Made by a program: the position numbers and the translations under genes | Shown: positions 26,832-47,466 of the stretch, piece after piece | Layout: the number at the start of each line of letters is the position of its first letter | Numbering within the stretch: the first letter of the stretch is position 1 | Notes under the pieces: generated by a model | The model's input: only the letters and a program-made list of their open reading frames with translations | What the model was told of the DNA's origin: nothing | Database searches by the model: none | NCBI GenBank assembly: GCA_007375725.1 | Contig: VMEV01000004.1 | Location: 5,021-69,020, forward strand | Direction of reading: 5' to 3' | DNA length: 64,000 bases | Origin: Parcubacteria group bacterium Greene0416_36 | GTDB lineage: Bacteria; Patescibacteriota; Patescibacteriia; VMEV01

Positions 26832-26920
26832 CGGAGAGGGCGAGATTCGAACTCGCGAGGGTTTTTTAGACCCTGCCACGTTAGCAGTGTGGTGCCTTAG
26901 ACCAGCTCGGCCACCTCTCC
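26832..26920 (-). tRNA. tRNA-Ser (anticodon GCU), long variable arm
   Basis: Reverse complement reads GGAGAGGTGGCCGAGCTGGTCTAAGGCACCACACTGCTAACGTGGCAGGGTCTAAAAAACCCTCGCGAGTTCGAATCTCGCCCTCTCCG. 7-bp acceptor stem, anticodon loop CTGCTAA, T-loop TTCGAAT, long extra arm typical of Ser. CCA not encoded. Confidence 0.75.
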
Positions 26921-29392: not shown

Positions 29393-29469
29393 ATGAGATT
29401 GCCACGCTTTTCTCTGCAAATTTATTTAACAAAAACAAAGATATTAGTTCAAAATCGCTCGCAATGACA
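29393..29469 (+). promoter_or_regulatory. conserved UTR element ATGAGATTGCCACG...CTCGCAATGACA (copy with long insert) about 50 nt upstream of pgi/pmi
   Basis: Same conserved flanks as the elements at 43354-43398 and 46993-47035 (both on the minus strand upstream of pilin genes). The flanks can pair (TG..ATTGC with GCAAT..CA). Confidence 0.3.
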
Positions 29470-29521
29470 TCCAAACCACGGCTCCATTCTTAATTCCTAA
29501 TTCTTCATTCTTAATTCATCT

Positions 29522-30490
29522 ATGAAATCCTCTATTCTCAACTTCCCCAAACAATTCGAGTACGAGCCAAAAATCGAAAATCCGAAAAAAAATCATCCCA
29601 AGTATGAGCATTTTATTGTCTCCGGAATGGGGGGATCCCATTTGGCGGCGGATTTGCTCTCGCTGGCCAAACCGGAATATAAACTGACTATTCATTCAGA
29701 CTACGGCATTCCCGAATGGATCCAAAAATCCGACAAAAGCCTCCTCTGGATAGCCAGTTCTTATTCAGGCAATACGGAAGAAGTACTGGATTCTCTCTCA
29801 CTGGCCCGCGCCAAAAATATCGACTGTGTGGCCATCGCAGTAGCAGGGCAACTGATTGAATATGCCAAACAGAATGGCATCCCTTACATCCAAATGCCCA
29901 ATACCGGGATTCAGCCCCGCTCGGCCATCGGATACAGTCTCCGCTCATTACTCCGTCTCTTGGAAGAAGAAAAAGGACTATCTGAAAGCGCCTTATTATC
30001 TTCATCCCTCAAATCGGAATCTTTGGAATCATCAGGGGAAAATTTAGCCGGAATTCTGGCAAATAAAATCCCCGTCATCTATTCGTCCAACAATAATCGC
30101 GCCATTGCCTATAATTGGAAAATAAAATTCAACGAGAACACAAAAATCCCCGCATTCTACAATGTCCTGCCCGAACTGAATCACAATGAAATGAACGGCT
30201 TTGATGTCGTTAACGCCACAAAAATACTCTCGGACAAATTTCATTTTATATTTTTGGAAGATTCCAGCGACCACCCGCAAAACCAAAAGCGCATGCGGGT
30301 TTTAAAGGATCTTTACGCCAAACGAAATCTCCCCGTCACTTCAATCGCTCTCTCTGGCAAAAATATCTGGGAGAAAATTTTCGCCAATCTTCTCGTCGCT
30401 GACTGGACCTCATACCATCTCGCCCTCTCCTACGGAATAGAACCGGAACCCGTGCCGATGGTGGAAGAGTTTAAAGAGTTGATAAAATAA
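29522..30490 (+). CDS. bifunctional phosphoglucose/phosphomannose isomerase (SIS-domain, archaeal-type PGI/PMI)
   Basis: 322 aa; SIS motif HFIVSGMGGSHLAADLL, second SIS-like half, size and layout of the PGI/PMI family. Confidence 0.7.
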   Translation: MKSSILNFPKQFEYEPKIENPKKNHPKYEHFIVSGMGGSHLAADLLSLAKPEYKLTIHSDYGIPEWIQKSDKSLLWIASSYSGNTEEVLDSLSLARAKNIDCVAIAVAGQLIEYAKQNGIPYIQMPNTGIQPRSAIGYSLRSLLRLLEEEKGLSESALLSSSLKSESLESSGENLAGILANKIPVIYSSNNNRAIAYNWKIKFNENTKIPAFYNVLPELNHNEMNGFDVVNATKILSDKFHFIFLEDSSDHPQNQKRMRVLKDLYAKRNLPVTSIALSGKNIWEKIFANLLVADWTSYHLALSYGIEPEPVPMVEEFKELIK

Positions 30491-30542
30491 TAGAAGCAAC
30501 AAACACCCTCATCTGACGGTGTTTGTTTGTTCTTATAAATAA

Positions 30543-31466
30543 TTATTCTTTCTTATTTTTCGACCCCACCGCATTCCCCGTGATCACCGCATTCCTCATC
30601 TGTTCGGCGAGTTCCCCCATGTGGCCCGGAGAATGAGGGATCATAATCGTATTGTTGTGAGCTCCGGACCCGAGATCTTTGAGCGTATCGAAGTATTGAG
30701 TCATGAGCACCAAATTCATCACGTCCTGCGACGTAGTACCCTCCACCGAGCGCTTAAAATCATCGACAGACTCTCGAAGCCCCTCGATAATGGCCTTACG
30801 CTGATTGGCGATGCCTTGTCCCTGCAGAGCCTTGCTTTCAGCCTCGGCTTGAGCGGCTTTGACCTTCATGATGCGGTCAGCTTCTCCCTTCTCCGCCGCG
30901 GCAATACGCTGGCGCTGAGCCGCGTTGATATCGTTCATGGCCTCTTTGACCCGGGCATCGGGTTCAATGTCCGTTACCAAGGCTTTGAGGATGCCGAGAC
31001 CAAACTCATCCATGGTCGCGTCCAGTTCGCTTTTGACCGCATCCGCGATCTCATCTTTTTTCTCGAACAAATGATCGAGCGTGATTTTCGGAACGCGCGC
31101 GCGGACGACATCGAACACGAAAGACGTAATCTGCCCCTGAGGATCCTGAAGCTTATAAAACGCATCGTAGATTTTGGTGGGCTGAACAAAATACTGCACG
31201 GAAATGACCAAATGAACGAACACATTATCCTCGGTCTTGGTCTCGACTTTGACCGACAATTGCTGAACGCGCACATTCACGCGCCCCACCACCCATTCGA
31301 TCCAAGGGATTTTGATTCCCAACCCGGGCCCCACCACTCGGACAAACTTCCCAAAACGCTGAATGACTCCGTACGTCTGCTGTTCGATGGTAAAAAATAA
31401 CGCGAACAAAGAAAAAAACAGAAATATCCCTCCCAGCCAATATAGAAATAACATAATAGGATCCAT
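30543..31466 (-). CDS. SPFH/Band-7 (stomatin/prohibitin-like) membrane protein
   Basis: 307 aa; N-terminal TM, SPFH core (YGVIQRFGKFVRVVGPGLGIKIPWIEWV...VFVHLVISVQYFV), C-terminal coiled coil. Confidence 0.85.
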   Translation of the reverse strand: MDPIMLFLYWLGGIFLFFSLFALFFTIEQQTYGVIQRFGKFVRVVGPGLGIKIPWIEWVVGRVNVRVQQLSVKVETKTEDNVFVHLVISVQYFVQPTKIYDAFYKLQDPQGQITSFVFDVVRARVPKITLDHLFEKKDEIADAVKSELDATMDEFGLGILKALVTDIEPDARVKEAMNDINAAQRQRIAAAEKGEADRIMKVKAAQAEAESKALQGQGIANQRKAIIEGLRESVDDFKRSVEGTTSQDVMNLVLMTQYFDTLKDLGSGAHNNTIMIPHSPGHMGELAEQMRNAVITGNAVGSKNKKE

Positions 31467-31614
31467 AAATAATTACTTAAATAGATAAAATTCTCCCTAG
31501 AACTTACAATACTTAAATTACAAATTAAATGAAATCGGGTCCGTCATTTTAGCCGTACCCGATCAATCCTTTCAAAATAGACAAAAACTCACACAAATCA
31601 TCCCTCAACAGTAA

Positions 31615-32061
31615 TCAGTCCTTAAAATACTGTTTTCGCAGTTCATAACCCATAATCGTAGGGATATAAAAAATCAAATCTGCGGCTAATTTTCCAACAA
31701 AGATTCCAAGTAAAAATGGACTGATCATCAGAGGGAAAAAATACAAGCAAAACGGACGCACAAAAAAACTATCGAGGATTTCCGCCGAGCTGAACTCTAA
31801 AAAGATATTTCGAATATCCTTCAAAAAATCCCACCGATTGATTGTCCGATGATCAGCACGAACAAGAACCTGTCTCGCGCGGATATCTCTCCATGCAATC
31901 GTTCCATAATAAAAAATAGATTCCCCAAAAGCCCCCACAAAAGCAGCCAAAACCCGATTATCCGTGGCAAAAAACACCAATCCCGCCGCCGCCATTGCGC
32001 CCGCGGTTCCCATGATTTCTGCAGGCAGATACCGGCTGACCCACTCCTTCATTTTAGACAT
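31615..32061 (-). CDS. hypothetical membrane protein
   Basis: 148 aa with at least three hydrophobic helices. Confidence 0.4.
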   Translation of the reverse strand: MSKMKEWVSRYLPAEIMGTAGAMAAAGLVFFATDNRVLAAFVGAFGESIFYYGTIAWRDIRARQVLVRADHRTINRWDFLKDIRNIFLEFSSAEILDSFFVRPFCLYFFPLMISPFLLGIFVGKLAADLIFYIPTIMGYELRKQYFKD

Positions 32062-32257
32062 AGAAACGAACTCCTATATCAACAATAAACTCCTACCTCA
32101 AAAAGAACCGAATCTCTATAAAGTACGTCAAAAACGATACTATTGCAATAAGGAACACGTCAAAAAAACTCCCTCTTAAAACTATGCATTTATATTCCCA
32201 TTTTTTTGTGAGAAAAACAAAAAATATCGGCCGATTCGATCCTGGCGATATTTTGTC

Positions 32258-32653
32258 CTACAAAATTCCAGAATATTCAGGGTAATTGTCTCTAACCAGA
32301 TTTTTCCAGCTTGCCGTTTCATTACTGCCAGTCAAATCATTTTTATGATACACAAGCAAAACAGACACTCTATTTATATTTTTATGGATAGCGACAATGC
32401 ACCTATTGCCAGAACCATGACGAGATTCTTGGGTACCCGAAATCTTGAATTCTGTTTTACAAATTTTTATATCAGCAGAATCAATAATCGTCTGGGCCAT
32501 GTTTTTATTAAACAAAACATCAAAAACACCGAACTCTTCTACCAAAAAGGAATATGTCAGATCCCAAGCACTTTTATATTTTCTGGCAAATGTTTTGATA
32601 AAATGCCTTTCCGTAAAAGACTCAAAGACAACTTCATATTTAGTAATATTCAT
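32258..32653 (-). CDS. RelE/ParE-superfamily-like toxin (putative Panacea-associated toxin)
   Basis: 131 aa. C-terminal EFKISGTQESRHGSGNRCIVAIHKNINRVSVLLVYHKNDL parallels the RelE pattern YKIKLRSSGYRLVYQVIDEKVVVFVISVGKREDVY. The gene overlaps the upstream antitoxin gene by 14 nt. Confidence 0.45.
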   Translation of the reverse strand: MNITKYEVVFESFTERHFIKTFARKYKSAWDLTYSFLVEEFGVFDVLFNKNMAQTIIDSADIKICKTEFKISGTQESRHGSGNRCIVAIHKNINRVSVLLVYHKNDLTGSNETASWKNLVRDNYPEYSGIL

Positions 32654-33314
32654 GAGGATCTTCTTGAGTTATCAAACCCAAAGAAATAATATCATTATCA
32701 TCAGCACACAAATATGGAAGCTGATTGTGCGTGAATTCGACAATCTCTTTTGTTTTTTTGCCTTTCCATTTTTTCTCAATATTCTTGATAAGTTCCAATT
32801 CTTCCCTTTTCATTTCAGATAAATCTTTTTTTGATCCTGCCCGAGTTTGTGATATGAGCATCGCACCCTCTTTTGTCTGATTTATTCCAATTTGACCATT
32901 TTCATAGAGCTCATCTATCACTCTGAAATAAGGATCCGCTACTGGACCATATTGGATTTTTCTATATTGCACTCCACTCATACTATGCAGGTGGTAATAA
33001 AACCAACCCGCATCAGCAAGATACACAAGCTTAGCCAGTTTCGTTTTTGGAATTTTGTCTCCTCCTCGCAAAAAAGCCAAGATCATTTGTTTATATTTTT
33101 CGTAATTGGGAGATTCTCCGCCTCCAAGCTCTTCAAATGACACGCCCAAAATACTAGAAAGCTTTTCAAACTCTCCCATGGTCAACTCTCTCTTCCCCTG
33201 TTCGATGCCAATATAAGAAGATCTAGAAATACCCAACTTCTCCGCTATAAAAGCCTGAGAAAACCCGCGAGCCACCCGAAAAGCACGGACAGATTGTGTA
33301 TATTTATTATTCAT
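32640..33314 (-). CDS. HTH (XRE) - Panacea/DUF4065 domain antitoxin (PanA-like)
   Basis: 224 aa. N-terminal XRE HTH (RGFSQAFIAEKLGISRSSYIGIEQGKRELT). C-terminal DUF4065 signature (KTKLAKLVYLADAGWFYY...YRKIQYGPVADPYF). Confidence 0.7.
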   Translation of the reverse strand: MNNKYTQSVRAFRVARGFSQAFIAEKLGISRSSYIGIEQGKRELTMGEFEKLSSILGVSFEELGGGESPNYEKYKQMILAFLRGGDKIPKTKLAKLVYLADAGWFYYHLHSMSGVQYRKIQYGPVADPYFRVIDELYENGQIGINQTKEGAMLISQTRAGSKKDLSEMKREELELIKNIEKKWKGKKTKEIVEFTHNQLPYLCADDNDIISLGLITQEDPHEYY

Positions 33315-33433
33315 ATGACCAGATCATATCAAATAATGTCGAAAAATCAAACATATTGTGTCAAAAGTTATGACACTCGGCATTATATTGATTTTTAATC
33401 ATTTTTATATATACTAACCCTAGCATAAAATTC

Positions 33434-33518
33434 GGAGAGGTGGCCGAGTGGTTTAAGGCACCAGTCTTGAAAACTGGCACCCCGCAAGGGGTCGTGGGTT
33501 CAAATCCCACCTTCTCCG
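33434..33518 (+). tRNA. tRNA-Ser (anticodon UGA), long variable arm
   Basis: GGAGAGGTGGCCGAGTGGTTTAAGGCACCAGTCTTGAAAACTGGCACCCCGCAAGGGGTCGTGGGTTCAAATCCCACCTTCTCCG. Anticodon loop CTTGAAA, T-loop TTCAAAT. Confidence 0.8.
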
Positions 33519-33559
33519 CCTATACAAAACAGACGCAATAACTAAAAGTTTTCCCAACA

Positions 33560-33598
33560 AAAATGTAAGGGCACAGAATTCTGTGCCCTTACATTTTT
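33560..33598. terminator. palindromic terminator AAAAATGTAAGGGCACAGAATTCTGTGCCCTTACATTTTT serving tRNA-Ser (+) and the convergent helicase gene (-)
   Basis: Perfect palindrome with A/T-run flanks; overlaps the last codons and stop of the minus-strand helicase ORF. Confidence 0.65.
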
Positions 33599-35238
33599 GG
33601 CACCCCCTTCATCTCCAAAATCCTATCCACCCTAAACGCCCGATCTTCTTTGCGCTCCATGCAATACGCCTGCATGCCGATATATTTCTTGCCGAGATAG
33701 ACCATTTCGCCCACGCGGTGGGGGATGATTTCGCGGCAGGATTTTTCGTCCGAGCCTTTTAAATAGACAATTTTGAGACTTTTTTCATTATCAATCGCTT
33801 CCTGAATCATCCGGACTTTATCTTCCAAACTTAACAATTTCTCCGATTTTCCATATTGAAACTGTGTGACAAATTTCACCACATTCCAGTCGAGCCAGAT
33901 ATGTCGCTTGGCAACCGGCTTTTTGAGCACGAGGCCTTCAATCGAAGTGCACCGCGAGAGGGCCACGTACAGCTGGCCATGAGCGAAAGTGCCTCGGCCG
34001 ATATCCACTATCACGCGGTCGAAAGTTTTTCCCTGGCTTTTGTGAATGGTGACAGCCCACGCAAGTTTGAGCGGGTATTGATTGAATGATCCGATTTTCC
34101 GCGAATCCACATGTCCTTTTTCGAAAACATATTCGAACATGTCCCAGGTATGACGTCCCACAACCACTTCCTCCCCGCTGTTCAATTTCACGATAATGGC
34201 CGTATCTTTTTCACCCGCGTCATTTTCTTCGTCCACGAAATTGATGATCTGGCCGATGGTTCCATTGACCCAGCGGCCCATGATTTCATTGTTGAGCATC
34301 ATGATCTGCGAACCGATTTTAAGTTCGAGATTTTCGGTAGTGGGCAAAGCATTTCTCTCGAATTTACCGGAAACCCGGCTCGAAAAGGAATAATTTTTTC
34401 CAGCTAAACGTAACAATGCCGCCGCATTGATCTCATCCGCCGCGGCGTTAGTCGTGGTGAGATAGATATAAAATTCCTTTTTCGGAGGGACGAAATCAGG
34501 CTCGTATCTCTCGTTGAGTATTTGGAGATCCGCAGGCGTCGCCGAATTATTGCGAATCGAGTTCAGCAGTCTGACAAAGTCCGCGTCTTTCTGGCGATAG
34601 ACTTTGGACAGTTCCAGAAATTCCATATCCAAAGATTCAAACACTTTCGCACTGAAAAAATAAGGCGTCAGATAGGTGAGCGCGAAAATTTTCTTTTCCT
34701 CGGCACTCACTACCGGAGGCAATTGATAGAGGTCGCCGATAAAAACCATCTGCACCCCGCCAAACGGCAGCTTCCGTGTTTTCCCGTTGAGACGCAAAAA
34801 TTTATCCACGCAGTCGAGCAAATCCGCACGGACCATCGATATTTCATCGATCACGATCAAATCCAATTTCTCGTACATCTCCGGATCCGACACTTTTTTT
34901 ACCTTTGAAACCAAAATATTGGGCTTGAAATGAAAAAAGGAGTGAATGGTTTGCCCAGAAATATTAACCGCCGCCACCCCCGTGGGAGCCAGCACGACCA
35001 TCTCTTTTTTCGAATGCTCACGAAAATATTTGAGAAACGTCGATTTTCCGGTTCCCGCCTTCCCTGTCAAAAACAAATTCTTTCCCAACTCGACCATCCC
35101 GATCGCTTTCTTAAAATCGTCATTGAGCTCAATAGAATCTTTCGCTTGTATTTTAGCTTTCCTCGCCTTCTTCTCTTTCTTCATTTTTTTCGCCAGAGTC
35201 ATAAAAATTATGTAAACAAATACTCCATCTCTCCCCAA
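33589..35238 (-). CDS. Pif1/RecD-family ATP-dependent DNA helicase
   Basis: 549 aa. Walker A LTGKAGTGKST, Walker B LIVIDEISMV, motifs GDLYQLPPV and C-terminal AVTIHKSQG..VALSR (SF1B Pif1/RecD pattern). Likely true start at Met (MTLAKK) 13 codons inside. Confidence 0.7.
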   Translation of the reverse strand: MGRDGVFVYIIFMTLAKKMKKEKKARKAKIQAKDSIELNDDFKKAIGMVELGKNLFLTGKAGTGKSTFLKYFREHSKKEMVVLAPTGVAAVNISGQTIHSFFHFKPNILVSKVKKVSDPEMYEKLDLIVIDEISMVRADLLDCVDKFLRLNGKTRKLPFGGVQMVFIGDLYQLPPVVSAEEKKIFALTYLTPYFFSAKVFESLDMEFLELSKVYRQKDADFVRLLNSIRNNSATPADLQILNERYEPDFVPPKKEFYIYLTTTNAAADEINAAALLRLAGKNYSFSSRVSGKFERNALPTTENLELKIGSQIMMLNNEIMGRWVNGTIGQIINFVDEENDAGEKDTAIIVKLNSGEEVVVGRHTWDMFEYVFEKGHVDSRKIGSFNQYPLKLAWAVTIHKSQGKTFDRVIVDIGRGTFAHGQLYVALSRCTSIEGLVLKKPVAKRHIWLDWNVVKFVTQFQYGKSEKLLSLEDKVRMIQEAIDNEKSLKIVYLKGSDEKSCREIIPHRVGEMVYLGKKYIGMQAYCMERKEDRAFRVDRILEMKGVPKM

Positions 35239-37961: not shown

Positions 37962-38028
37962 AAAATATATTATTTCACTGCGATTCTTTCTTTAACACTA
38001 GCCAAAAACCAAGCAAATATCAAAAGAA

Positions 38029-38106
38029 ATCCCTCCCAAACCCTCCCTTTGACAAGGGAGGGAGTTATCTCCCCCTTGTCAAAGGGGGACTAAGGGGGAT
38101 TTGTTG
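38029..38106 (+). repeat. composite double-hairpin palindromic repeat, copy 5
   Basis: AAATCCCTCCCAAACCCTCCCTTTGACAAGGGAGGGAGTTATCTCCCCCTTGTCAAAGGGGGACTAAGGGGGATTTGTTG in the divergent region between polA and the 38145 gene. Confidence 0.8.
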
Positions 38107-38144
38107 CTTTCACTCCACTCATTAAAATTTATAACTTCTAATTT

Positions 38145-39527: not shown

Positions 39528-39584
39528 AAATAGTGTTTCTTATTTCGTTCTTTTTTATATTTATACAAAAAAAGAGAGTTAAAA

Positions 39585-40334
39585 ATGACTAATTCTGAAA
39601 GAGAACAGAAACTAAATTTCTGGGATCTCATTGCCTCCATATTCTGGCTCCTGATGGAGTCTTTCTGGATGATGCAGTGGAATACGATGGCCCAATGGAT
39701 GATTCCATTTGCCATCATCACCGGACTATACACGTTCCGATACATCCAAAGAACCATCGCCGCTTTCTTCTCGAGTCTGACCATGTTCTTATGGGTCACA
39801 AGAGCTGCTTTTTGGGTGGTCTCCGACATCAACAAAATCATGCCCCTAGAAATAGTAGCCAAAGTACTATTCGGGATAGGAACCATCACGCTCGTGGTCC
39901 TTATCCTTACAAATTCCTTAGAGCATTTCTCCCGCTTCAAAGGAACCAGCCACAATGATCAATCGCATAAACTTAATCTCGCCGAGCAAAGCGGTTCCGT
40001 GGTGTGGTTTCTAATGGATGGACTCTGGCTCATGAAATTGACATTCTGGGCGTACATCCTAATCATCCCCGCACTCGTCCTTAATTTGACCATCTTTCGT
40101 TATACCGAAAGAAAAGCCTCTGGCATGATAGTAACCACAATCATCAACTTGTGGCTGCTCTTCGCCATCAGCTGGATGATTTCTGACCTGGGAGGCATCA
40201 CGGTATTTTACACAGTCTCTCAAGTTTGTTTCGGATGTATGGGTGTGTCTATTATCGCTCTAATCATCAGCCTCAAACCCGCCACACAAAGCAATCAAAT
40301 TTCCAACCCCGAAATAGCCAAAGGTTTTATTTAG
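39585..40334 (+). CDS. hypothetical polytopic membrane protein
   Basis: 249 aa, about 7 TM helices, Trp-rich; no motif recognised. Confidence 0.4.
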   Translation: MTNSEREQKLNFWDLIASIFWLLMESFWMMQWNTMAQWMIPFAIITGLYTFRYIQRTIAAFFSSLTMFLWVTRAAFWVVSDINKIMPLEIVAKVLFGIGTITLVVLILTNSLEHFSRFKGTSHNDQSHKLNLAEQSGSVVWFLMDGLWLMKLTFWAYILIIPALVLNLTIFRYTERKASGMIVTTIINLWLLFAISWMISDLGGITVFYTVSQVCFGCMGVSIIALIISLKPATQSNQISNPEIAKGFI

Positions 40335-40400
40335 CTATTCGAGAAAGGATAAAACAAAAAGCAGGCCAAGAAAAAAATTTCCGACCTGCTTTTATAATAA

Positions 40401-40488
40401 ACAACAAATCCCCCTCAGTCCCCCTTTGACAAGGGGGAGGTAACAGCCCCCTCCCTTGTCAAAGGGAGGGTTGGGGAGGGATTTGTTG
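40401..40488 (-). repeat. composite double-hairpin palindromic repeat, copy 6 (inverted orientation)
   Basis: CAACAAATCCCCCTCAGTCCCCCTTTGACAAGGGGGAGG-TAACAGCC-CCCTCCCTTGTCAAAGGGAGGGTTGGGGAGGGATTTGTTG at convergent gene ends. Confidence 0.8.
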
Positions 40489-40497
40489 TTATTTCCC

Positions 40498-40902
40498 CTA
40501 TACCAATTCCCCCGCCCCCGCTGCCAGGGCCAAGGCCACGATCAGATACGAAATAGACACCACGATAATACCGATAACCGCGTTCTTGATAATTTCCTTC
40601 GCCTCATCCACCTGCGACGAATTCCCAGCCGCCGTGATCCAACGGAAGCCGCCATATACTGAGTAGAGCACCGCCAAGGTGCCGATCACCCCCAAACACA
40701 ATTTCACAATGGCACCCACTCTGGTCGATAAAGTGGAAGTATCTCCTTTTGTACGCAAACCCGCTTGCTCTGAAGAAGCATCAAGCGTTTTCCCAATCGC
40801 TTGAATTCCGGTTTTGGGTTGGGCATAGGCAAACCCCATTGGCATCAAAAATACAGATGCCATCAAGATGAAACTCAAGAATATTTTTTTTAAAAAAGTC
40901 AT
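40498..40902 (-). CDS. TrbC/VirB2-like pilin paralog 1 (signal peptide + two-TM core)
   Basis: 134 aa. Signal peptide ending AYA-QP. Core LCLGVIGTLAVLYSVYGGFRWITAAGNSSQVDEAKEIIKNAVIGIIVVSISYLIV. Confidence 0.65.
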   Translation of the reverse strand: MTFLKKIFLSFILMASVFLMPMGFAYAQPKTGIQAIGKTLDASSEQAGLRTKGDTSTLSTRVGAIVKLCLGVIGTLAVLYSVYGGFRWITAAGNSSQVDEAKEIIKNAVIGIIVVSISYLIVALALAAGAGELV

Positions 40903-40911
40903 ATAATTTGA

Positions 40912-41331
40912 TTATTTACCGCCACTCGATAGCTGAATCGCCACCGCAATAATAATATAGGCAAATGTAACTATTGCCAAGCCAATGCAGGCATTTGTCA
41001 CGGTCTGTTTGGCCGCATCCACCTTCCCCGAATCCCCCCCCGCCGTAACCCACTGAAACCCGCCGTAGATGATGAAAATGACCGTCACCGTACCGATGAG
41101 CATGATGAAAAATTGGATGACTTCACCAAAACGAGAAGTGATATCTATGATAGTTTGACTGCGTCCACCCTGAGAGGTGACTTGAGACCCTTCAGTCATG
41201 CCACTCGAAGTTGTAGTCTCTAACAATTCCCCTGAGGCTTTTTGGAAACCCTTCTTTTCTTCCGCCAATACAAAAAGCGGACTGAGTAAAGCCATCAAAG
41301 AAAATAGAATTGGGAGAAGTGATCGAAACAT
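40912..41331 (-). CDS. TrbC/VirB2-like pilin paralog 2
   Basis: 139 aa. Signal peptide. Core IGTVTVIFIIYGGFQWVTAGGDSGKVDAAKQTVTNACIGLAIVTFAYIII. Confidence 0.65.
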   Translation of the reverse strand: MFRSLLPILFSLMALLSPLFVLAEEKKGFQKASGELLETTTSSGMTEGSQVTSQGGRSQTIIDITSRFGEVIQFFIMLIGTVTVIFIIYGGFQWVTAGGDSGKVDAAKQTVTNACIGLAIVTFAYIIIAVAIQLSSGGK

Positions 41332-41424
41332 AGGGGAAAAAGTTGGATAAAAAGACAGGAGATCCCCGATCCGCCTGACGGCTCTCGGGGATGATTTAAA
41401 TTTCGCTTGGGGGCTAAATTTAAA

Positions 41425-41853
41425 TCATTTGAATACCGTATCAATCGCACTCTTGAGCGCGAACGAGCTGATCGAATAGGCGGAAATCACGATAATAAGG
41501 CCGATCACGGCATTCTTAAGCCAAGCCTTAGCTTCGTCAATCTGAGCAGAATCACCTCCGGCAGTCATGTATTTCCATCCGGCCCAGAGGATGATCAAAG
41601 TCAGAACCGTCCCCAAAAAGGTAAGGATGATCTTGATGATATTGACCACCGTATCAATGAGATCCGCCTGGGTCTGGTCCTCACTAGTGGCGGCATATCC
41701 CGCCCCCGTCGCCACCTTCTCCGCGTCCAACACCGCCTGATCCAGAAAACGCTGAGCAGACACGGGAGCCAGAGGCAAAGCGACTAAGCCGAGACTGACT
41801 AGAAATAGAGATATTTTTCGAAACATAACAAAATAAATTAAATATACAGCCAA
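41425..41853 (-). CDS. TrbC/VirB2-like pilin paralog 3
   Basis: 142 aa. Core LGTVLTLIILWAGWKYMTAGGDSAQIDEAKAWLKNAVIGLIIVISAYSI. Confidence 0.65.
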   Translation of the reverse strand: MAVYLIYFVMFRKISLFLVSLGLVALPLAPVSAQRFLDQAVLDAEKVATGAGYAATSEDQTQADLIDTVVNIIKIILTFLGTVLTLIILWAGWKYMTAGGDSAQIDEAKAWLKNAVIGLIIVISAYSISSFALKSAIDTVFK

Positions 41854-41857
41854 ACAA

Positions 41858-41947
41858 CAAACCCATCCCCAACCCTTCCCTTAACAAGGAAGGGAGAACT
41901 CGCAAATGCCTCCCCTGTTAAAGGGAGGTTAGGTGGAGTTTGTTGCT
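41858..41947 (+). repeat. variant copy of the composite repeat (TTAACAAGGAAGGG subtype) inside the pilin array
   Basis: CAACAAACCCATCCCCAACCCTTCCCTTAACAAGGAAGGGAG...CCTCCCCTGTTAAAGGGAGGTTAGGTGGAGTTTGTTG. Same architecture with diverged hairpin sequences. A second copy of this subtype is at 61688-61790. Confidence 0.7.
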
Positions 41948-42450
41948 TACCCATTCAAAAACTCACTCGTCCTAAGCGAATTGAGCACAAAACTGGTAAT
42001 CAGCCAAGCAAATGAGACAATCAGGACTCCCATGACGGCATTGAAAATTAGGGCCTTTGCCTTGGAAACATCTTCCTCATTTCCTCCGGCCAAAAACCAA
42101 GTATAACCCGCATAGATCACAACTAGAAGCAAGACTGTACCGAGTGCGCTGAGCAAAGTCTGGAGTATCTGCCCGATATAAATATAAATATTGACCCTGC
42201 CGGTATTTTCTTTGTATCGAGGATCAATCGCGGGACCCAAATTTCCTAAGGCCTCACGAGTTCCTGCCAATCCAGGACGGTGTTGGCCGCTGGGTCCCAC
42301 AACCGGGTTCAAAGCACCTCCCATATCAAACAATCCAGGATCTTCCGCTTTGCCTATAGGAGCAAAAGACAATACCAACGAAAAAACAATCATACAAACT
42401 GCCACTATTCTTTTTACTAGCATTCCGGTTTTATTCATATTCGTATTCAA
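41947..42450 (-). CDS. TrbC/VirB2-like pilin paralog 4
   Basis: 167 aa. Core LSALGTVLLLVVIYAGYTWFLAGGNEEDVSKAKALIFNAVMGVLIVSFAWLI. Track start overlaps the upstream paralog by 20 nt, so the true start may be an internal Met (MNKTGML or MLVKRIV). Confidence 0.6.
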   Translation of the reverse strand: MNTNMNKTGMLVKRIVAVCMIVFSLVLSFAPIGKAEDPGLFDMGGALNPVVGPSGQHRPGLAGTREALGNLGPAIDPRYKENTGRVNIYIYIGQILQTLLSALGTVLLLVVIYAGYTWFLAGGNEEDVSKAKALIFNAVMGVLIVSFAWLITSFVLNSLRTSEFLNG

Positions 42451-42910
42451 TAGTGGATTGCTTGATCGAACTCAACACAAAGGCCGTAATGCCCCAAGAC
42501 AACATAATGATCATAAGGCCGATAAATCCATTGATCAGCCATTTTTTTGCGGTCTCTACCTGATCCGCATTGCCCCCAGCCATAGCCCAGAGATAACCGG
42601 CGTAGAGAGTCATGGATAAAAATATAATTCCCAGAAACCCCAAAGCAATGCGCACGATCTGCACGATCAATTCAGTGAGGCCCGCTTTTCCTTCCTTCCG
42701 AATATCATACGACCCTCCGGCGATAAACTTCATGCGGCTGCGCGATAATTCATTTGACCCCGCCCTGCCTTCCGGATTTTGGGTGATGGATTCAGCATCG
42801 CCTGGGGTGACCGTTTTACCTGTTCCCGACGGCTGAGCCATAGCTGGAGTAGAAAAACCACCCCAACCCATAGCGACCGCCAAGAATAATAAAACTATTT
42901 TCCGAATCAT
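42431..42910 (-). CDS. TrbC/VirB2-like pilin paralog 5
   Basis: 159 aa. Core LGFLGIIFLSMTLYAGYLWAMAGGNADQVETAKKWLINGFIGLMIIMLSWGI. Confidence 0.65.
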   Translation of the reverse strand: MIRKIVLLFLAVAMGWGGFSTPAMAQPSGTGKTVTPGDAESITQNPEGRAGSNELSRSRMKFIAGGSYDIRKEGKAGLTELIVQIVRIALGFLGIIFLSMTLYAGYLWAMAGGNADQVETAKKWLINGFIGLMIIMLSWGITAFVLSSIKQSTIEYEYE

Positions 42911-42915
42911 AAAAA

Positions 42916-43341
42916 TTAATCAAACAAACTCGTAGGGATATCCACGGGATTGAGAGAGGCCACAATGAAATCAGTGATGAAATACGCGGCGGTAATAAGA
43001 ATCATACCGATGATGCCATTGGCAATCCATTTTCTCGCTTGATCTACCTGATCCGTATTGCCTCCAGCAGTCAGCCATAGAAACCCCGCGTAAATCACCA
43101 CGGCAAGCAAAATAAAACCCACAAAGGAGAGAATCGTCTTGATGATAAAACCCAAGGTCAGGTTCAGCTGGCGTTCCGATTCCGCTGCATCTGCCACCTT
43201 TTTTCCATAGCCTACCTGGGTCACGACTTGTACCCCGCCAAAGGGATCCGGCTTATCTTCCGCGAGCACAGGAATCGCAAAAAATCCGGCAAACAAAACC
43301 GCGGTAAACCCCATCAATAACATTTTCCTAAAAAAAATCAT
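42916..43341 (-). CDS. TrbC/VirB2-like pilin paralog 6
   Basis: 141 aa. Core LSFVGFILLAVVIYAGFLWLTAGGNTDQVDQARKWIANGIIGMILITAAYFI. Confidence 0.65.
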   Translation of the reverse strand: MIFFRKMLLMGFTAVLFAGFFAIPVLAEDKPDPFGGVQVVTQVGYGKKVADAAESERQLNLTLGFIIKTILSFVGFILLAVVIYAGFLWLTAGGNTDQVDQARKWIANGIIGMILITAAYFITDFIVASLNPVDIPTSLFD

Positions 43342-43353
43342 AAATTTCTACCT

Positions 43354-43398
43354 GTCATTGCGAGCCACCGCATTCTAGCGGTGGCGTGGCAATCTCAT
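43354..43398 (-). promoter_or_regulatory. conserved leader hairpin element (minus strand: ATGAGATTGCCACG-[GCCACCGC..GCGGTGGC]-TCGCAATGACA) directly upstream of pilin paralog 6
   Basis: Shares its flanks with the 46993-47035 element. The inner stem differs there but remains complementary (compensatory change). Confidence 0.4.
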
Positions 43399-43408
43399 GA
43401 ATAAACCC

Positions 43409-43840
43409 CTACCCCCTTTGCAAAAAAGCTCCGATCAAAAATCCCACAATCAAATAAGCTGTGGCGATAATAAAAATACCGATAGTCCCATTGGTCACCC
43501 ATTTCTTCGCCTGATCCACCTGATCGGAATTCCCTCCGGCCGTGAGCCACAGGAACCCTGCGTAAATGATCACCAAAAGCAAAATCACGCCCACCACTCG
43601 CAATATCCAAAATACCACCACACCCACAATGAAAAAAAAAGTGAATTCTTCCCTCCCCGCCTGATAATCCGTATCACCAAATCCCTCTCGAGCGATATCT
43701 TGTAGATATCCAGCTCCAGTAGCCCCAGGATCATTTCTACCTCCAGTTCCAGGTTCTACCGCAAAAACTATTACAGGAATAAATAACAAAAAAAAGCAGA
43801 TAAGTAATAAATTCAATTGATATATAATTTTTTTCCACAT
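43409..43840 (-). CDS. TrbC/VirB2-like pilin paralog 7
   Basis: 143 aa. Core VVGVILLLVIIYAGFLWLTAGGNSDQVDQAKKWVTNGTIGIFIIATAYLI. Confidence 0.65.
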   Translation of the reverse strand: MWKKIIYQLNLLLICFFLLFIPVIVFAVEPGTGGRNDPGATGAGYLQDIAREGFGDTDYQAGREEFTFFFIVGVVVFWILRVVGVILLLVIIYAGFLWLTAGGNSDQVDQAKKWVTNGTIGIFIIATAYLIVGFLIGAFLQRG

Positions 43841-43845
43841 AAAAA

Positions 43846-44271
43846 TTATGAAGCAATACGAGTCAGAGACTCAATAAACCCAGCTATAACATAGGAGGCC
43901 CCGACAATAATCGCGCCAATAGTACAATTAGTGATGATCGTTTTTGCTTTCTCCACTTGATCAGAATTACCTCCAGCAGTAAGCCACAGAATACCTGAGT
44001 AGATAATAAGAATCAACAATATTACTCCAACTAAAGACAAAAGTATTTTTACATAGCGAATAATTGTGCTGACCAAAATTAAATTGACAACTCCTCGAGT
44101 CTGCAATCCTTCTGTTGTTACTTTTATACCGCTAGTATTAACACTAGTATTGCTTAAAGCCGCATCCAACAACTTCCCTCCGCGTACTTTATCTTTCGTT
44201 GTATCTTGAGCAAAAACAAAACTAGGAACCAACAAAATCGACAGTAATAATGCAATCAAAATCTTTCTCAT
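43846..44271 (-). CDS. TrbC/VirB2-like pilin paralog 8
   Basis: 141 aa. Core LVGVILLILIIYSGILWLTAGGNSDQVEKAKTIITNCTIGAIIVGASYVI. Confidence 0.65.
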   Translation of the reverse strand: MRKILIALLLSILLVPSFVFAQDTTKDKVRGGKLLDAALSNTSVNTSGIKVTTEGLQTRGVVNLILVSTIIRYVKILLSLVGVILLILIIYSGILWLTAGGNSDQVEKAKTIITNCTIGAIIVGASYVIAGFIESLTRIAS

Positions 44272-44278
44272 ACGATTT

Positions 44279-44692
44279 TTAACTTGTAGTTTGAGTCGCG
44301 AGCAAGATAAAGGCCGTTATCGCATAGGCCGTGCCAATAATCAGGGCACCCATAAAGGCATTGAATATAAGCGTCCGCGCCTCGGCGGCCTTGTCCGTAT
44401 TGCCCCCAGCCGTGAGCCACAAAAATCCGCCGTAGATAATGATGATCAAAATCACGAGACCTAGAAACTGCAGGGCCTGCTCAATCAATTTACCAATACG
44501 CTGGGCTAACCCAGTGGCAGTGGCATCATCTTTTTTTTCTGACAAAGAAGCTTTTTCCATGGTTGTACTAAAAAAACCATCTCCCTTCATAATAGTCTCC
44601 GAAACCGAAGCCGATACAAAACCAACATTGACCCCGAATAACATCACCAGAGCCATGGAACTTAAAAATAATTTTTTGAAAAATGAAGGCAT
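44279..44692 (-). CDS. TrbC/VirB2-like pilin paralog 9
   Basis: 137 aa. Core LGLVILIIIIYGGFLWLTAGGNTDKAAEARTLIFNAFMGALIIGTAYAI. Confidence 0.65.
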   Translation of the reverse strand: MPSFFKKLFLSSMALVMLFGVNVGFVSASVSETIMKGDGFFSTTMEKASLSEKKDDATATGLAQRIGKLIEQALQFLGLVILIIIIYGGFLWLTAGGNTDKAAEARTLIFNAFMGALIIGTAYAITAFILLATQTTS

Positions 44693-44697
44693 AAAGT

Positions 44698-44934
44698 TTA
44701 AAATTTTCCTAAAGCTTTTAGAAATTCTTCAACCGAGATTTTCGATTGTTTCAATACACCCATCAACATTCCCCTTTTTAAATCCTTGCTATGATAAGGC
44801 AAAATAACTCTCCTCGTGGCATCTAACGAATGTATCAATTTAATATGGCTTCCCTTCTGCGAAATCACTTTAAATCCCAAACTGAGGAGCAATTGTAACA
44901 CTTCCTTTGCCTTCAAAATCGGAATAATACTCAT
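44698..44934 (-). CDS. hicA: HicA-family toxin (mRNA interferase)
   Basis: 78 aa. KAKEVLQLLLSLGFKVISQKGSHIKLIH matches the HicA/YcfA K..L...GF....KGSH..H core. Immediately downstream of hicB. Confidence 0.65.
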   Translation of the reverse strand: MSIIPILKAKEVLQLLLSLGFKVISQKGSHIKLIHSLDATRRVILPYHSKDLKRGMLMGVLKQSKISVEEFLKALGKF

Positions 44935-44937
44935 ACA

Positions 44938-45138
44938 TTACCTTGAGGTCTCCAAAGCAAATTCTATTGCCTCTCTTGCCATATACTTTGCCTCTACCAG
45001 ACTATCTCCCCCAGTCACAATTTCAGGAATTTTCATCACTCGAACAATATAGCCTTTTTCATCATTGTTCCTTTCAAAACGAGTATCAAAAACCCCTTTT
45101 TTCGTCTTCAATCTGAATTTTTTTATTTTTCTTAACAT
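44938..45138 (-). CDS. hicB: HicB-family antitoxin (UPF0150/HicB N-terminal-domain-like)
   Basis: Start chosen at internal Met (MLRKIKK...), giving 66 aa. GYIVRVMKIPEIVTGGDSLVEAKYMAREAIEFALE is a typical HicB RNase-H-fold antitoxin segment. The longer track ORF (to 45294) would overlap the upstream pilin gene on the same strand. Confidence 0.55.
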   Translation of the reverse strand: MLRKIKKFRLKTKKGVFDTRFERNNDEKGYIVRVMKIPEIVTGGDSLVEAKYMAREAIEFALETSR

Positions 45139-45140
45139 AT

Positions 45141-45587
45141 TTATAAAGGTGTAATCAAAGCCGTGGTAAGACCCTTTGTGATGAAGCTTATCAAGACATA
45201 CGAACTGCCGCAAATCACAATCGCAATCACCGAGTTCACCAATATCCTCTTCCCTTCCCCCGCCTGATCCGAATTCCCCGCCGCCGTAGTCCACAAATAC
45301 CCTCCGTAGACCACATATCCCAATGCCACGGTACCAATGATGGACAGGGCAATGCCCATGTAGCGGCCGATTTGATTGACTACCACTAAACGAGCATCGG
45401 AGAGAACGTCTGTTCCTTCTTCTCTTGATATAGTCTCATCTAAATTTGTCTGCGATAAACCACCACCTTCATTGTCTGCTCCTAACATTTTATTGACAAG
45501 TGTAGGATTAAGTTGTGCATACAATAAAATAGGAAGACAAAATACTAAACTTACAGAAACAGATAAAATCGAAACAATTCGCTTCAT
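45141..45587 (-). CDS. TrbC/VirB2-like pilin paralog 10
   Basis: 148 aa. Core IALSIIGTVALGYVVYGGYLWTTAAGNSDQAGEGKRILVNSVIAIVICGSSYVLI. Confidence 0.65.
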   Translation of the reverse strand: MKRIVSILSVSVSLVFCLPILLYAQLNPTLVNKMLGADNEGGGLSQTNLDETISREEGTDVLSDARLVVVNQIGRYMGIALSIIGTVALGYVVYGGYLWTTAAGNSDQAGEGKRILVNSVIAIVICGSSYVLISFITKGLTTALITPL

Positions 45588-45593
45588 AAATTT

Positions 45594-45983
45594 CTATCCA
45601 GCTAAAGCCAATACTACAAAATTAGTCAGTGTATACGCACCCATTAAAATCACCATCCCAATCACCGCGCTGGAGATAATTTCCTTGGACTCATCTATTT
45701 TCGCCTGATCGCCTTTTGCCGTGAGCCACAGAAATCCAGCATATACTACATAACCAAGAGCAATCACACCCAAAAACCCATAGATAACAGACAAAACCTG
45801 GCCGATATAGACGGCGGGGCTTTTGGCACCTTCTGCGGTTATCTCATATCCGGATTTCTCAGCAAATATGTTCAGTTTCCCAACAGGATCTGGGTTTTCG
45901 GCGGCCAATACCCAAAAAGGCAACATTAAAAATATTACACTCGATAAAAAAATAAAAGTTTTTTGAAAAAATGAGTGTCTCAT
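45594..45983 (-). CDS. TrbC/VirB2-like pilin paralog 11
   Basis: 129 aa. Core GFLGVIALGYVVYAGFLWLTAKGDQAKIDESKEIISSAVIGMVILMGAYTL. Confidence 0.65.
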   Translation of the reverse strand: MRHSFFQKTFIFLSSVIFLMLPFWVLAAENPDPVGKLNIFAEKSGYEITAEGAKSPAVYIGQVLSVIYGFLGVIALGYVVYAGFLWLTAKGDQAKIDESKEIISSAVIGMVILMGAYTLTNFVVLALAG

Positions 45984-45986
45984 AAT

Positions 45987-46409
45987 TTATTTAACTTCTA
46001 CACCCGTAATCACATTGGTACCCAGCTGACTGATCGCGAAATTGGCTAGGGAATAAGCCCCAAAAATAATCACAAGGCCGATACCCCCATACAATAAAAT
46101 CTTCTTGGCAGTATCAACCTTCGAGGAATCTCCCGCGGCCGTGAGATACAAAAATCCGGCATAAATGATAATAAGCAATGCAAAAATACCTAGGATACCA
46201 AGGATAGATTGGATAATACCTCCGGAATATTGAATGAAGGCTTCTTGTTCCACCTTGCCTCCTCCTTCAAAGGCTTGCGAAGCCTTTCCTGTTTCCATTA
46301 GCCCCGTTGACAATGGATCAGCAGCCAAAATATTCGAACCCAAACCAAAAGACAGGACTCCGACTAGGATTCCCGACAATAAAATTTTATTTCGGAGAAA
46401 ATTTCGCAT
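45987..46409 (-). CDS. TrbC/VirB2-like pilin paralog 12
   Basis: 140 aa. Core LGILGIFALLIIIYAGFLYLTAAGDSSKVDTAKKILLYGGIGLVIIFGAYSL. Confidence 0.65.
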   Translation of the reverse strand: MRNFLRNKILLSGILVGVLSFGLGSNILAADPLSTGLMETGKASQAFEGGGKVEQEAFIQYSGGIIQSILGILGIFALLIIIYAGFLYLTAAGDSSKVDTAKKILLYGGIGLVIIFGAYSLANFAISQLGTNVITGVEVK

Positions 46410-46453
46410 ATAAAATCTTCGTTTGAAGAAGTAGAAAAAAGATATCCCTATTT

Positions 46454-46487
46454 GTCTGTAGGGGCGCAGCGCGCTGCGCCCCTACAG
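46454..46487. repeat. GTAGGGGC-family palindrome TCTGTAGGGGCGCAGCGCGCTGCGCCCCTACAGA in an intergenic gap of the pilin array
   Basis: Perfect 34-bp palindrome. Unlike other family members it lacks flanking A/T runs. Confidence 0.6.
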
Positions 46488-46583
46488 ACAACATGTCCTT
46501 TTTCTGCTTCTTCCTCCGAGCCCTTCAGCTCGGAGAGAAGAAAAGATTATAGATATAACAATTAGCTAGCTTATTGCTATCTC

Positions 46584-46982
46584 CTATCCTTGTAAACCTG
46601 TAGCAACGGTGAGTTGCTGGAGCACGAAAGTCGTGATCGCAAACGCGGACAAAATGATCACCAAACCGATAATACCGGCCTGAATGAGCTTTTTAGCTTC
46701 GTCTGTCTTATCGCTGGAACCTCCGGCAGTCATCCATTTGAAACCACCCATGAGGATGATCACCACGGCGACAGTACCCAAAAATCCCATGATAATGCGG
46801 ATCAAAGCGGCAATCGTTTCACGTGGATCGCGCTGTCCGAGTCCGGTATTTTTCTGAAAATTGATGCCGAATACGTCCTCAGCTGCGCCCACAGCCACGG
46901 GGACCGCCAGCATATTGAGAGACATAATCACCGACATGATTCCTACACCTAATTTTTTCATCATAATATCACCCCCTTTCAT
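46584..46982 (-). CDS. TrbC/VirB2-like pilin paralog 13
   Basis: 132 aa. Core MGFLGTVAVVIILMGGFKWMTAGGSSDKTDEAKKLIQAGIIGLVIILSAFAI. Confidence 0.65.
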   Translation of the reverse strand: MKGGDIMMKKLGVGIMSVIMSLNMLAVPVAVGAAEDVFGINFQKNTGLGQRDPRETIAALIRIIMGFLGTVAVVIILMGGFKWMTAGGSSDKTDEAKKLIQAGIIGLVIILSAFAITTFVLQQLTVATGLQG

Positions 46983-46992
46983 TTTTTATAGT

Positions 46993-47035
46993 GTCATTGA
47001 GAGTCCTGCGTTTTAGCAGGACGTGGCAATCTCAT
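46993..47035 (-). promoter_or_regulatory. conserved leader hairpin element (minus strand: ATGAGATTGCCACG-[TCCTGC..GCAGGA]-CTCTCAATGACA) upstream of pilin paralog 13
   Basis: Second copy of the 43354 element. The inner stem sequence differs but remains complementary. Confidence 0.4.
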
Positions 47036-47097
47036 ATAAAACATCAATACATTATTAGCCTAAGTATAGAAAAAAGACGAATTTTTGCAAATCTTTC

Positions 47098-47466
47098 TTA
47101 CTTGGCACCGATGCTGGCAAGCACATAACTGAGAATCGCGTAACTGCCAAACGCCACGATAATCCCGATCACGGCCCATACCAAGGTATCTATCCCCTTC
47201 TTCACCTTCTCCGAATTACCCCCCGAAGTCAAAAAATAAAACCCTCCGATGATAAAAAACACGAGCGACAATATACCCACAAGCCCCAGCATAGCCTGCA
47301 CTACTTGACCAACCAATTGGGGAACAGATGTTATACCCTCGAGAGGATTTGGCAATTGATTTTTTGGATCTGGTTTAGCTGTCATCAAAAGAGGCAATGA
47401 CCAGACAATCAAAGATGAATATAATATTCTAAAAAACGATTTCATATTTATAAATATCTTAATCAT
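47098..47466 (-). CDS. TrbC/VirB2-like pilin paralog 14
   Basis: 122 aa. Core LGLVGILSLVFFIIGGFYFLTSGGNSEKVKKGIDTLVWAVIGIIVAFGSYAI. Confidence 0.6.
   Translation of the reverse strand: MIKIFINMKSFFRILYSSLIVWSLPLLMTAKPDPKNQLPNPLEGITSVPQLVGQVVQAMLGLVGILSLVFFIIGGFYFLTSGGNSEKVKKGIDTLVWAVIGIIVAFGSYAILSYVLASIGAK

Follow-up and report, generated by a model that had tools for sequence, protein, structure and literature searches.

Why does the same short element stand ahead of clpP, pgi and two pilin genes in a single stretch of bacterial DNA? The question arises in 64,000 nt from Parcubacteria group bacterium Greene0416_36 (contig VMEV01000004.1 of GenBank assembly GCA_007375725.1, forward-strand positions 5,021 to 69,020); this whole 64-kb stretch is the window in what follows, and coordinates count from its first base. 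A sequence-only reading had found the element before the pilin and pgi genes and had proposed an RNA stability or processing element, a translational regulator or an attenuator. Here we show the family identity of the element, the covariation of its stems and, in other organisms, the linkage of its ATTGC subfamily to SsnA-like GIY-YIG nuclease genes. We conclude, with a probability of roughly 0.8, that the window copies are hairpin DNA repeats of the CGTC/TGTC-tagged repetitive extragenic palindrome (REP)/SRM family, which is linked to Ssn nucleases, and are not gene-specific RNA leaders.

Anatomy, copies and covariation of the element

Four intergenic copies in the window, each pointing at the next gene, share a form that consists of ATGAGATTGC-YNCG, a variable interior and CTCNCAATGACA. 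The three that had already been read from the sequence are present as described, all with the flanks ATGAGATTGCCACG and CTC(G/T)CAATGACA, and the exact 12-mer GAGATTGCCACG occurs three times in the window where about 0.01 occurrences are expected (exact 12-mer, 128 kb). Mismatch searches and a regular-expression scan added the fourth copy, at 4057-4102. Read on the opposite strand, which we call tag-first, a unit consists of (C/T)GTC, AT-XYZ, the interior, Z'Y'X'-AT, C and a tail. All four copies read TGTC-ATTG on this strand and have a C directly 3' of the palindrome (GCAAT-C), and in all window copies the first two stem pairs are A-T and T-A (TGTC, then AT...AT). The stem is bipartite: beyond a 5-bp basal part (ATTGC) and a 3x2 internal loop there can be a distal stem, of 0-11 bp and in fixed register. 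The tail is CTCA. Across the family, the spacing between the two boxes runs from 7 nt, where no hairpin is possible, to more than 60 nt, and the distinct interiors measure 10 to 69 nt.

The best-formed copy in the window is copy 3 (43353-43398, minus strand; tag-first strand plus), whose basal stem ATTGC/GCAAT, internal loop CAC/TC and distal stem GCCACCGC/GCGGTGGC fold at -24 kcal/mol (z = -4.5). It lies between two co-directional type IV secretion system (T4SS) pilin paralogues identified by Pfam, 11 nt 5' of the ATG at 43341. Copy 4 (46992-47035, minus strand; tag-first strand plus) folds as well (z = -4.6), with the distal stem GTCCTGC/GCAGGAC, the right box CTCTCAATGACA and a broken fifth basal pair, and is found 9 nt or 27 nt 5' of the pilin paralogue at 46584-46982, depending on whether the start is placed at 46982 or 46964. 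Upstream of it, at 47090-47063, is a promoter-like TTGCAA-16-TATACT, which is a consensus match only. Copy 1 (4057-4102, plus strand; tag-first strand minus) reads ATGAGATTGCTTCG-TCTTCGCTAAGACGTGAACC-CTCACAATGACA, laid out as ATGAGATTGC TTCG TCTTCGCTAAGACGTGAACC CTCACAATGACA, and occupies a divergent intergenic region 37 nt 5' of clpP (4140-4724, by Pfam). Its fifth basal pair is broken, with C opposite A, and in the comparison with shuffles it has only a weak fold. Copy 2 (29393-29469, plus strand; tag-first strand minus) retains intact left and right boxes, ATGAGATTGCCACG ... CTCGCAATGACA, around an AT-rich insert of 56 nt, which takes the place of the loop and, as the sequence-only reading had noted, is not palindromic; its folding z-score of +1.8 means that it has no stable inner hairpin. 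This copy lies 52 nt 5' of a bacterial-type PGI gene (29522-30490), in the divergent region shared with an ogt-like gene (28678-29280), and is identical in a second sample (L201).

A covariance model trained solely on copies from other genomes recovers copies 1 (E = 8.8e-7), 3 (E = 6e-12) and 4 (E = 1.1e-5) and misses copy 2 because of its long insert. All of the window copies are singletons, with no dimers. A further weak match of the model at 33108-33142 (E = 0.28) has no complementary boxes and was set aside. The genes had been identified as pilins and pgi; this holds for the bacterial-type PGI gene and for the pilins as such, except that the genes beside copies 3 and 4 are by Pfam of the T4SS VirB2/TrbC type (PF18895) and not type IV pilins. 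They belong to a run of 15 tandem small open reading frames (ORFs) of 122-187 aa on the minus strand (40498-48029), all matching PF18895, so that two of the four repeats fall within the array; 15 T4SS pilin paralogues are unusually many for a genome of the candidate phyla radiation (CPR).

The inner stem had been said to change in a compensatory manner between the two pilin copies, from GCCACCGC/GCGGTGGC to (G)TCCTGC/GCAGGA(C), and the wider family bears this out. A search that let the interior vary found more copies, and pairing is conserved among them. Within the subfamily whose basal triplet is TGC there are 273 distinct interiors. In 95 of them 5 bp or more pair as a perfect stem, compared with about 8% of shuffles. 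These perfect distal stems comprise 68 different sequences, which almost always start 3 nt past the left box and stop 2 nt short of the right one. We counted covariation in 27 aligned sequences of one length class, with 500 shuffles and slid partners as controls. Five of the six distal pairs change on both sides, and the 41 doubly changed cells compare with 22.3 +/- 3.2 in the shuffles, none of which (0/500) reaches 41; when the partners are slid, the share of paired cells drops from 85% to 22-50%. The earlier description of a selected secondary structure whose sequence is free thus stands, since one register accommodates 68 stem sequences while the shuffled and slid controls fail.

The basal stem behaves in the same way, on the level of subfamilies: ATTGC/GCAAT is replaced by ATTCT/AGAAT, ATCCT/AGGAT, ATCTC/GAGAT or ATCGC/GCGAT. 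Over all loci, left and right triplets other than TGC are complementary in 37 of 174 candidate pairs, where about 2.7 are expected, and TCT, CGC, CCT, TCC, CTC and TAC recur as basal triplets. The sequence-only reading had also suggested that the conserved flanks pair with each other. Copies 2 and 3 keep this pairing (ATTGC/GCAAT) in full, and it covaries between subfamilies, but one pair is broken in copy 4 (T) and in the newly found copy 1 (A). The element is a selected hairpin with a free inner-stem sequence, in which both the distal and the basal pairing covary.

A fifth copy belongs to another subfamily and lies within a gene. A generalised arm search, whose looser criterion expects 0.8 chance matches, found AGAGATCCCCGCCTCCGAGGGGATGACG at 19389-19416 on the plus strand; its minus strand reads CGTC-ATCCCC-...-GGGGAT-CTC and has the C directly after the palindrome (GGGGAT-C). 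It sits in frame in radA (19014-20477, by Pfam), in the RecA-like ATPase domain, where it encodes RDPRLRGDD and coincides with a 10-residue insertion relative to Streptococcus pneumoniae RadA (alignment to 5LKM). Being in frame and aligned with this extra segment, the radA copy shows that the repeat inserts at the DNA level. The CGTC-tagged REPs described by Di Nocera et al. (BMC Genomics 2013, PMC3733652) include intragenic copies in repair genes, and the radA copy matches this habit.

The window holds two other palindromes. A 95-nt composite palindrome at 3905-3999, 58 nt upstream of copy 1, has outer arms CAAACAACAAATCCC/GGGATTTGTTGTTTG and inner units CCCTTTGACAAGGG / CCCTTGTCAAAGGG and resembles another REP-like dimer; hairpins with similar G/C runs adjoin repeats in locus L067 (~2095-2127). 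Between two pilin paralogues, at 46452-46491, there is a perfect loopless 40-nt palindrome (TTGTCTGTAGGGGCGCAGCG/CGCTGCGCCCCTACAGACAA) whose sequence is unrelated to the repeat. Rfam assigned the element to no family, whether the whole window was searched at the gathering threshold or eight repeat-rich loci and 3300-4200 at permissive E-values; the only matches were tRNAs and chance microRNA-like ones on an unrelated palindrome. A full-text literature search with the literal element sequences returned primers and unrelated matches only.

Dispersal across genomes and linkage to SsnA-like genes

We scanned 185,579 species genomes, one per species, for ATGAGATTGC-N(5-35)-CTCNCAATGACA, a pattern with 21 specified bases. 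At least 120 loci were recovered, against about 8 chance matches expected by our own arithmetic, and they hold more than 250 copies. The matches listed come from more than 15 phyla, which include Bacteroidota, Chloroflexota, Desulfobacterota, Elusimicrobiota, Omnitrophota, Bacillota, Planctomycetota, Nitrospirota, Pseudomonadota and several CPR lineages, among others. One inverted dimer (L078) is on a 2.5-kb contig binned as a Thermoplasmata archaeon metagenome-assembled genome (MAG) and is either a real transfer or a binning error. Some copies stand singly and others form inverted pairs with about 20 nt between them or tandem runs; there are also arrays made up of nothing but the right-hand module. 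Among the matches listed, 68 dimers have their tags outward, compared with 16 tandem pairs and 9 with tags inward. In L093 (1-190 and 680-870) and L210 (~1780-1990), the tag-side module alone (GTCATTGCGAG... or GTCATTCTGAG...) is repeated three to four times with a period of 22-25 nt before one complete unit, which suggests slippage or a stepwise duplication of half-units.

In these loci the element lies beside unrelated housekeeping genes. The 106 ORFs that flank the matches listed share no Pfam family and show no enrichment of a transposase, integrase or recombinase, and an all-against-all BLAST of the ORFs from the at least 120 loci found no shared neighbouring gene to be enriched. Crude gene calls for the matches listed place the next gene on the same strand 84 times and on the opposite strand 96 times, so there is no orientation bias, and solitary copies between co-directional genes are likewise split (14 same, 11 opposite). 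The position before start codons that the sequence-only reading had emphasised is real within the window, where the gaps are 52 nt for pgi and 11 nt and 9 or 27 nt for the pilin genes, but it is not kept outside it: other genomes show no such preference, so the family as a whole has no set placement relative to start codons.

Orthologous copies are kept between species in Chryseobacterium (L003/L009) and Dehalococcoidia (L014/L033), and near-identical composite copies are found at two loci of one MAG (L045/L058 and L105/L106). We also compared four pgi orthologue loci (56-58% protein identity). In L204 and L206 the pgi gene is preceded by arms that belong to other subfamilies, whereas L202 and L208 show none. 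In these two distant CPR relatives the arms directly upstream of pgi (58% identical) form inverted dimers at 9891-9967 of L204 and 9927-9989 of L206, with the subfamilies ATCTC in one and ATTCT plus ATCCT in the other. The recurrence at pgi may be due to chance. We found no close relatives in which presence and absence could be compared, and the next pgi homologue is 60% identical.

The one gene to which the repeat is tied emerged when repeat clusters were read by eye. In 3 of the at least 120 loci, a 95-aa GIY-YIG ORF is wedged between repeats. We ran the association in reverse and scanned metagenomes with an alignment of these GIY-YIG proteins, which yielded 80 loci. A repeat is present within 250 nt of the SsnA-like gene in 77 of the 80. 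A tag-first copy, TGTCATTGCGAG...GCAATCTC, ends 0-40 nt before the start codon in 47, an inverted copy starts at the stop codon in 49, and 39 have stereotyped copies on both sides, whereas the background density of repeats predicts about two of each. The linked protein is 49% identical to SsnA of Neisseria gonorrhoeae (E = 1e-32), and homologues on annotated replicons, those of Planktothrix, Spirosoma, Rhizobium and Neisseria, likewise have repeats on their flanks that share the anatomy but differ in core sequence.

In many of the loci L121-L200 (for example L124, L137 and L145), the ssn-like gene takes its stop codon from the TGA in the repeat's 'aTGAGATTGC', so that gene and downstream repeat share bases. 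On the other side, 10-16 nt separate the upstream repeat from the ssn-like start, which leaves just enough room for a ribosome-binding site.

The window does contain one stand-alone GIY-YIG ORF, of 81 aa (26527-26772, minus strand; PF01541, E = 4e-18), which adjoins tRNA-Ser(GCT). We considered it as the cognate nuclease and rejected it: it is UPF0213/YhbQ-like (PDB 1ZG2 and 1YWL, E = 1e-13), shares only 32% identity with Neisseria SsnA and is not bordered by repeats. It probably stands outside the repeat system. On the minus strand at 26527-26920, the ORF is directly downstream of the tRNA, and a hairpin with a 7-bp stem (GTTCGCC...GGCGAAC) lies between them.

Weighing the explanations

We place the element in the CGTC-REP/SRM superfamily because of its tag, its AT-initial stem, the C after the palindrome and the variable hairpin at the loop position. 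Its members include the NTS repeats of Neisseria, an oriented form of dRS3 (CGTCATTCCCGCGMAVGCGGGAATCYRG), which together with related SRM motifs flank ssnA in many bacteria (Chenal et al., Nat Commun 2025, PMC11893778). The ssnA product is a 94-aa single-domain GIY-YIG protein (cd10448) that binds the hairpin only as single-stranded DNA (ssDNA) and cuts a few nucleotides upstream of it, while ignoring double-stranded DNA (dsDNA), RNA and the complementary strand (PMC11893778). The GTC before the palindrome governs cutting, the C after it is the most critical base for binding and the stem is also needed, but the identity of the loop is dispensable and extensions, including an extra paired stem, are tolerated (PMC11893778). 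In N. meningitidis, the SsnA/NTS system lowers transformation by NTS-bearing DNA (PMC11893778).

By analogy with these characterised systems, a single-domain GIY-YIG nuclease would bind the tag-first hairpin of the ATTGC subfamily when it is single-stranded and would cut a few nucleotides 5' of the tag. The flanks would be conserved as the parts that the protein reads, and the inner stem would sit at the free loop position, where self-pairing alone is kept; a protein that reads the flanks and leaves the loop position free would account for conserved flanks beside a free, covarying inner stem. The window copies would then be, or would once have been, substrates of a nuclease encoded elsewhere in the Parcubacteria genome, and they would have arrived by REP-like dispersal instead of having been selected to serve clpP, pgi or the pilin genes as leaders. 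Any consequence would be expected on the level of DNA, such as ssDNA cutting during recombination or DNA uptake, as in Neisseria.

Several observations weigh against this explanation. There is no SsnA-type gene within the window. Relative to the local gene, the five window copies all face the same way (p ~0.03-0.06), and a promoter-like hexamer pair lies just upstream of three of the four intergenic copies. A purely neutral repeat would predict neither, yet such promoter matches are no commoner than in shuffles. Two window copies have a broken basal pair and one has the 56-nt insert, so some may be decayed. The published SRM motif, HGTCWYN(0-2)YYVSBRHN(0-5)WNVSBRGN(0-2)RNCYNB, matches none of the four window copies and none of 380 copies of the subfamily; the same expression does match Neisseria and Rhizobium repeats, and it is a search heuristic and not a biological definition. 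Stem architecture differs too, being bipartite here and, in the four CGTC families published so far, a stem of 8-9 bp with a loop of 4-5 nt. Finally, the published biochemistry covers the enzymes of other subfamilies. Separately, we considered replication-strand bias as a cause of the copy orientation and rejected it, since GC skew is uniformly negative across the window while copies occur in both orientations.

Part of this evidence would also fit a second explanation, namely that the copies derive from a small mobile unit of the form repeat-ssn-repeat, comparable to REPIN/RAYT or to miniature inverted-repeat transposable elements and their insertion sequences (ISs), and are now purely selfish or decaying, with no present function and with the nuclease perhaps lost. 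We regard this as possible, though at odds well below even. A gene between inverted copies recalls a transposase between its ends, an IS-like NTS-ssnA-NTS architecture was remarked on by the authors of PMC11893778, gene-free inverted dimers are common and near-identical composites occur at two loci of one MAG. The state of the window copies, singletons with two broken basal pairs and one large insert and with no ssn gene nearby in the window, would suit remnants. However, the tag and the C after the palindrome are intact in four of four window copies, orthologous copies persist between species (L003/L009, L014/L033), an effect on transformation has been measured in Neisseria (PMC11893778), and transposition by a GIY-YIG nuclease has never been demonstrated. 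The remnant explanation moreover overlaps with that of an Ssn-linked repeat on sequence identity and differs from it only on present function.

The idea from which the sequence-only reading started, that the copies work as RNA in the 5' untranslated regions that precede clpP, pgi and the two pilin genes, where a stable hairpin protects mRNA or modulates translation start, fares less well, and we consider it unlikely as either a primary or a secondary role. It draws on the co-orientation of the four intergenic copies with their downstream genes at 9-52 nt from the start, on the promoter-like hexamer pairs that end 0-28 nt upstream of copies 1, 2 and 4, on the folding of copies 3 and 4 far better than shuffles (z ~-4.5), and on the arms of other subfamilies just upstream of pgi in two distant CPR relatives (L204, L206). 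REP-type repeats are also generally known to affect mRNA stability, as discussed in PMC3733652. Yet the at least 120 genome loci show no preference in orientation or position, and their neighbouring genes are unrelated. Within the window, copy 2 is without a stable fold and copy 1 has a weak one, the putative -10 hexamer of copy 1 overlaps the element, so that the transcript would lack the 5' arm, and the promoter matches are no more frequent than in shuffles. Two pgi orthologue loci (L202, L208) lack the element, one copy falls within the coding sequence of radA, and no Rfam family covers it. The repeat is moreover dispersed, forms mostly inverted dimers and flanks SsnA-like genes, and SsnA acts on ssDNA and is inactive on RNA and dsDNA (PMC11893778). 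Since the strand that the nuclease would recognise is the complement of the one on which the element was first described, the mRNA of the downstream gene would carry the strand that is not recognised.

It is very improbable that the boxes are dsDNA sites bound by a recombinase or regulator, be it as an operator, an integron attC or an Xer-type site, although two inverted conserved boxes around a variable centre look superficially attC-like. With 7 to more than 60 nt between the boxes, a fixed dimeric operator does not fit. The sequence lacks the attC core GTTRRRY/RYYYAAC, and the neighbouring genes show no enrichment of integrases or recombinases. The covariation of the distal stem points to intrastrand pairing, and the associated protein ignores dsDNA.

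Three further readings were rejected. A leader peptide was suggested by the in-frame ATG...TGA of the 29-nt form, but the lengths of other classes are not divisible by three. A promoter formed by the two boxes is incompatible with their variable spacing, and likeness to hammerhead, kink-turn or attC structures failed on inspection because the core motifs are missing.

Returning to the Ssn-linked repeat, in all five window copies the strand that the nuclease would recognise, the tag-first strand, is the template strand of the following or containing gene, a bias that is absent in the at least 120 loci elsewhere. The position of two copies in the VirB2-like pilin array echoes the clustering of NTS at surface-protein genes in Neisseria. 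These observations lead us to a more speculative proposal, to which we would give rather long odds: the Ssn/SRM system would be considerably broader than described, with an ATTGC subfamily in more than 15 phyla including CPR, and its Parcubacteria repeats may have been put to use in controlling recombination or DNA uptake at variable surface genes of an episymbiont.

Recognising the repeat removes a false lead, since an apparent shared riboregulator of pilin, pgi and clpP genes becomes a dispersed DNA repeat. It also extends the partnership of Ssn nucleases and hairpin repeats to a large subfamily that the published motif does not detect, from Bacteroidota and Chloroflexota to CPR. Such repeats yield many spurious small ORFs and seemingly conserved motifs, so that their recognition improves annotation. 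Each pair of Ssn nuclease and repeat is a potential tool for sequence-specific ssDNA cutting, and a 5-bp conserved stem with a replaceable distal hairpin is a natural candidate for probing the minimal requirements of the nuclease.

Comparison with known systems

The SRM/NTS repeats are among the closest relatives. Shared features are an oriented hairpin with a 5' (C/T)GTC tag, a palindrome that starts with ATT and a C right after it, together with tens to hundreds of intergenic copies, flanking on both sides of a GIY-YIG gene of about 95 aa and a loop position that is free to vary. On the other hand, SRM/NTS repeats have a single 8-9 bp stem and the tail CYRG, whereas the repeats described here have a 5-bp basal stem, an internal loop, a second stem of 0-11 bp and the tail CTCA. 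Four species have been tested biochemically for SRM/NTS; the host range found here is wider, including CPR, Chloroflexota, Bacteroidota, Desulfobacterota and Bacillota, among others. The main text of PMC11893778, the part compared here, names no CPR, Chloroflexota or Bacteroidota host. Going by the published motif and that main text, the ATTGC-core repeat is a subfamily outside the catalogued set and not a new kind of system.

Also close are the CGTC-tagged REPs. These carry a terminal CGTC, often TGTC, and a 3-nt tail, their stems almost invariably start with A-T and T-A, one kind of inverted dimer predominates, intragenic copies are often in repair genes and there is no associated transposase (PMC3733652). 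The superfamily includes dRS3 of Neisseria and RPE-4 and RPE-6 of Rickettsia (PMC3733652). The repeats here share the CGTC/TGTC terminal tag, the AT-starting stem, the 3-nt tail, the predominant inverted dimer and the in-frame copy in a repair gene, and, as here, CGTC-tagged copies lie mostly between co-directional or convergent genes. The published families differ in having a CCA-type tail and in coming mainly from Alphaproteobacteria, compared with the CTC tail, the variable distal hairpin and the many more phyla of the present subfamily; in 2013 they were also without a known partner enzyme (PMC3733652).

More distant systems follow the same logic with other parts. The GTAG-tagged REPs and REPINs with their RAYT proteins also combine a short imperfect hairpin that is recognised as ssDNA, an unpaired tag, inverted dimers and one small repeat-flanked nuclease gene. 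However, their tag is GTAG and their enzyme has an HUH/Y1 fold of the IS200/IS605 type, in place of TGTC and GIY-YIG here, and no Y1 transposase lies near our repeats among the 106 flanking ORFs. Integron attC sites, too, are recognised as a folded single strand in which the basal boxes are conserved, some bases stay unpaired and the terminal structure varies, but their GTTRRRY/RYYYAAC boxes are absent here, there is no integrase and no cassette array, and the repeats that we describe are dispersed.

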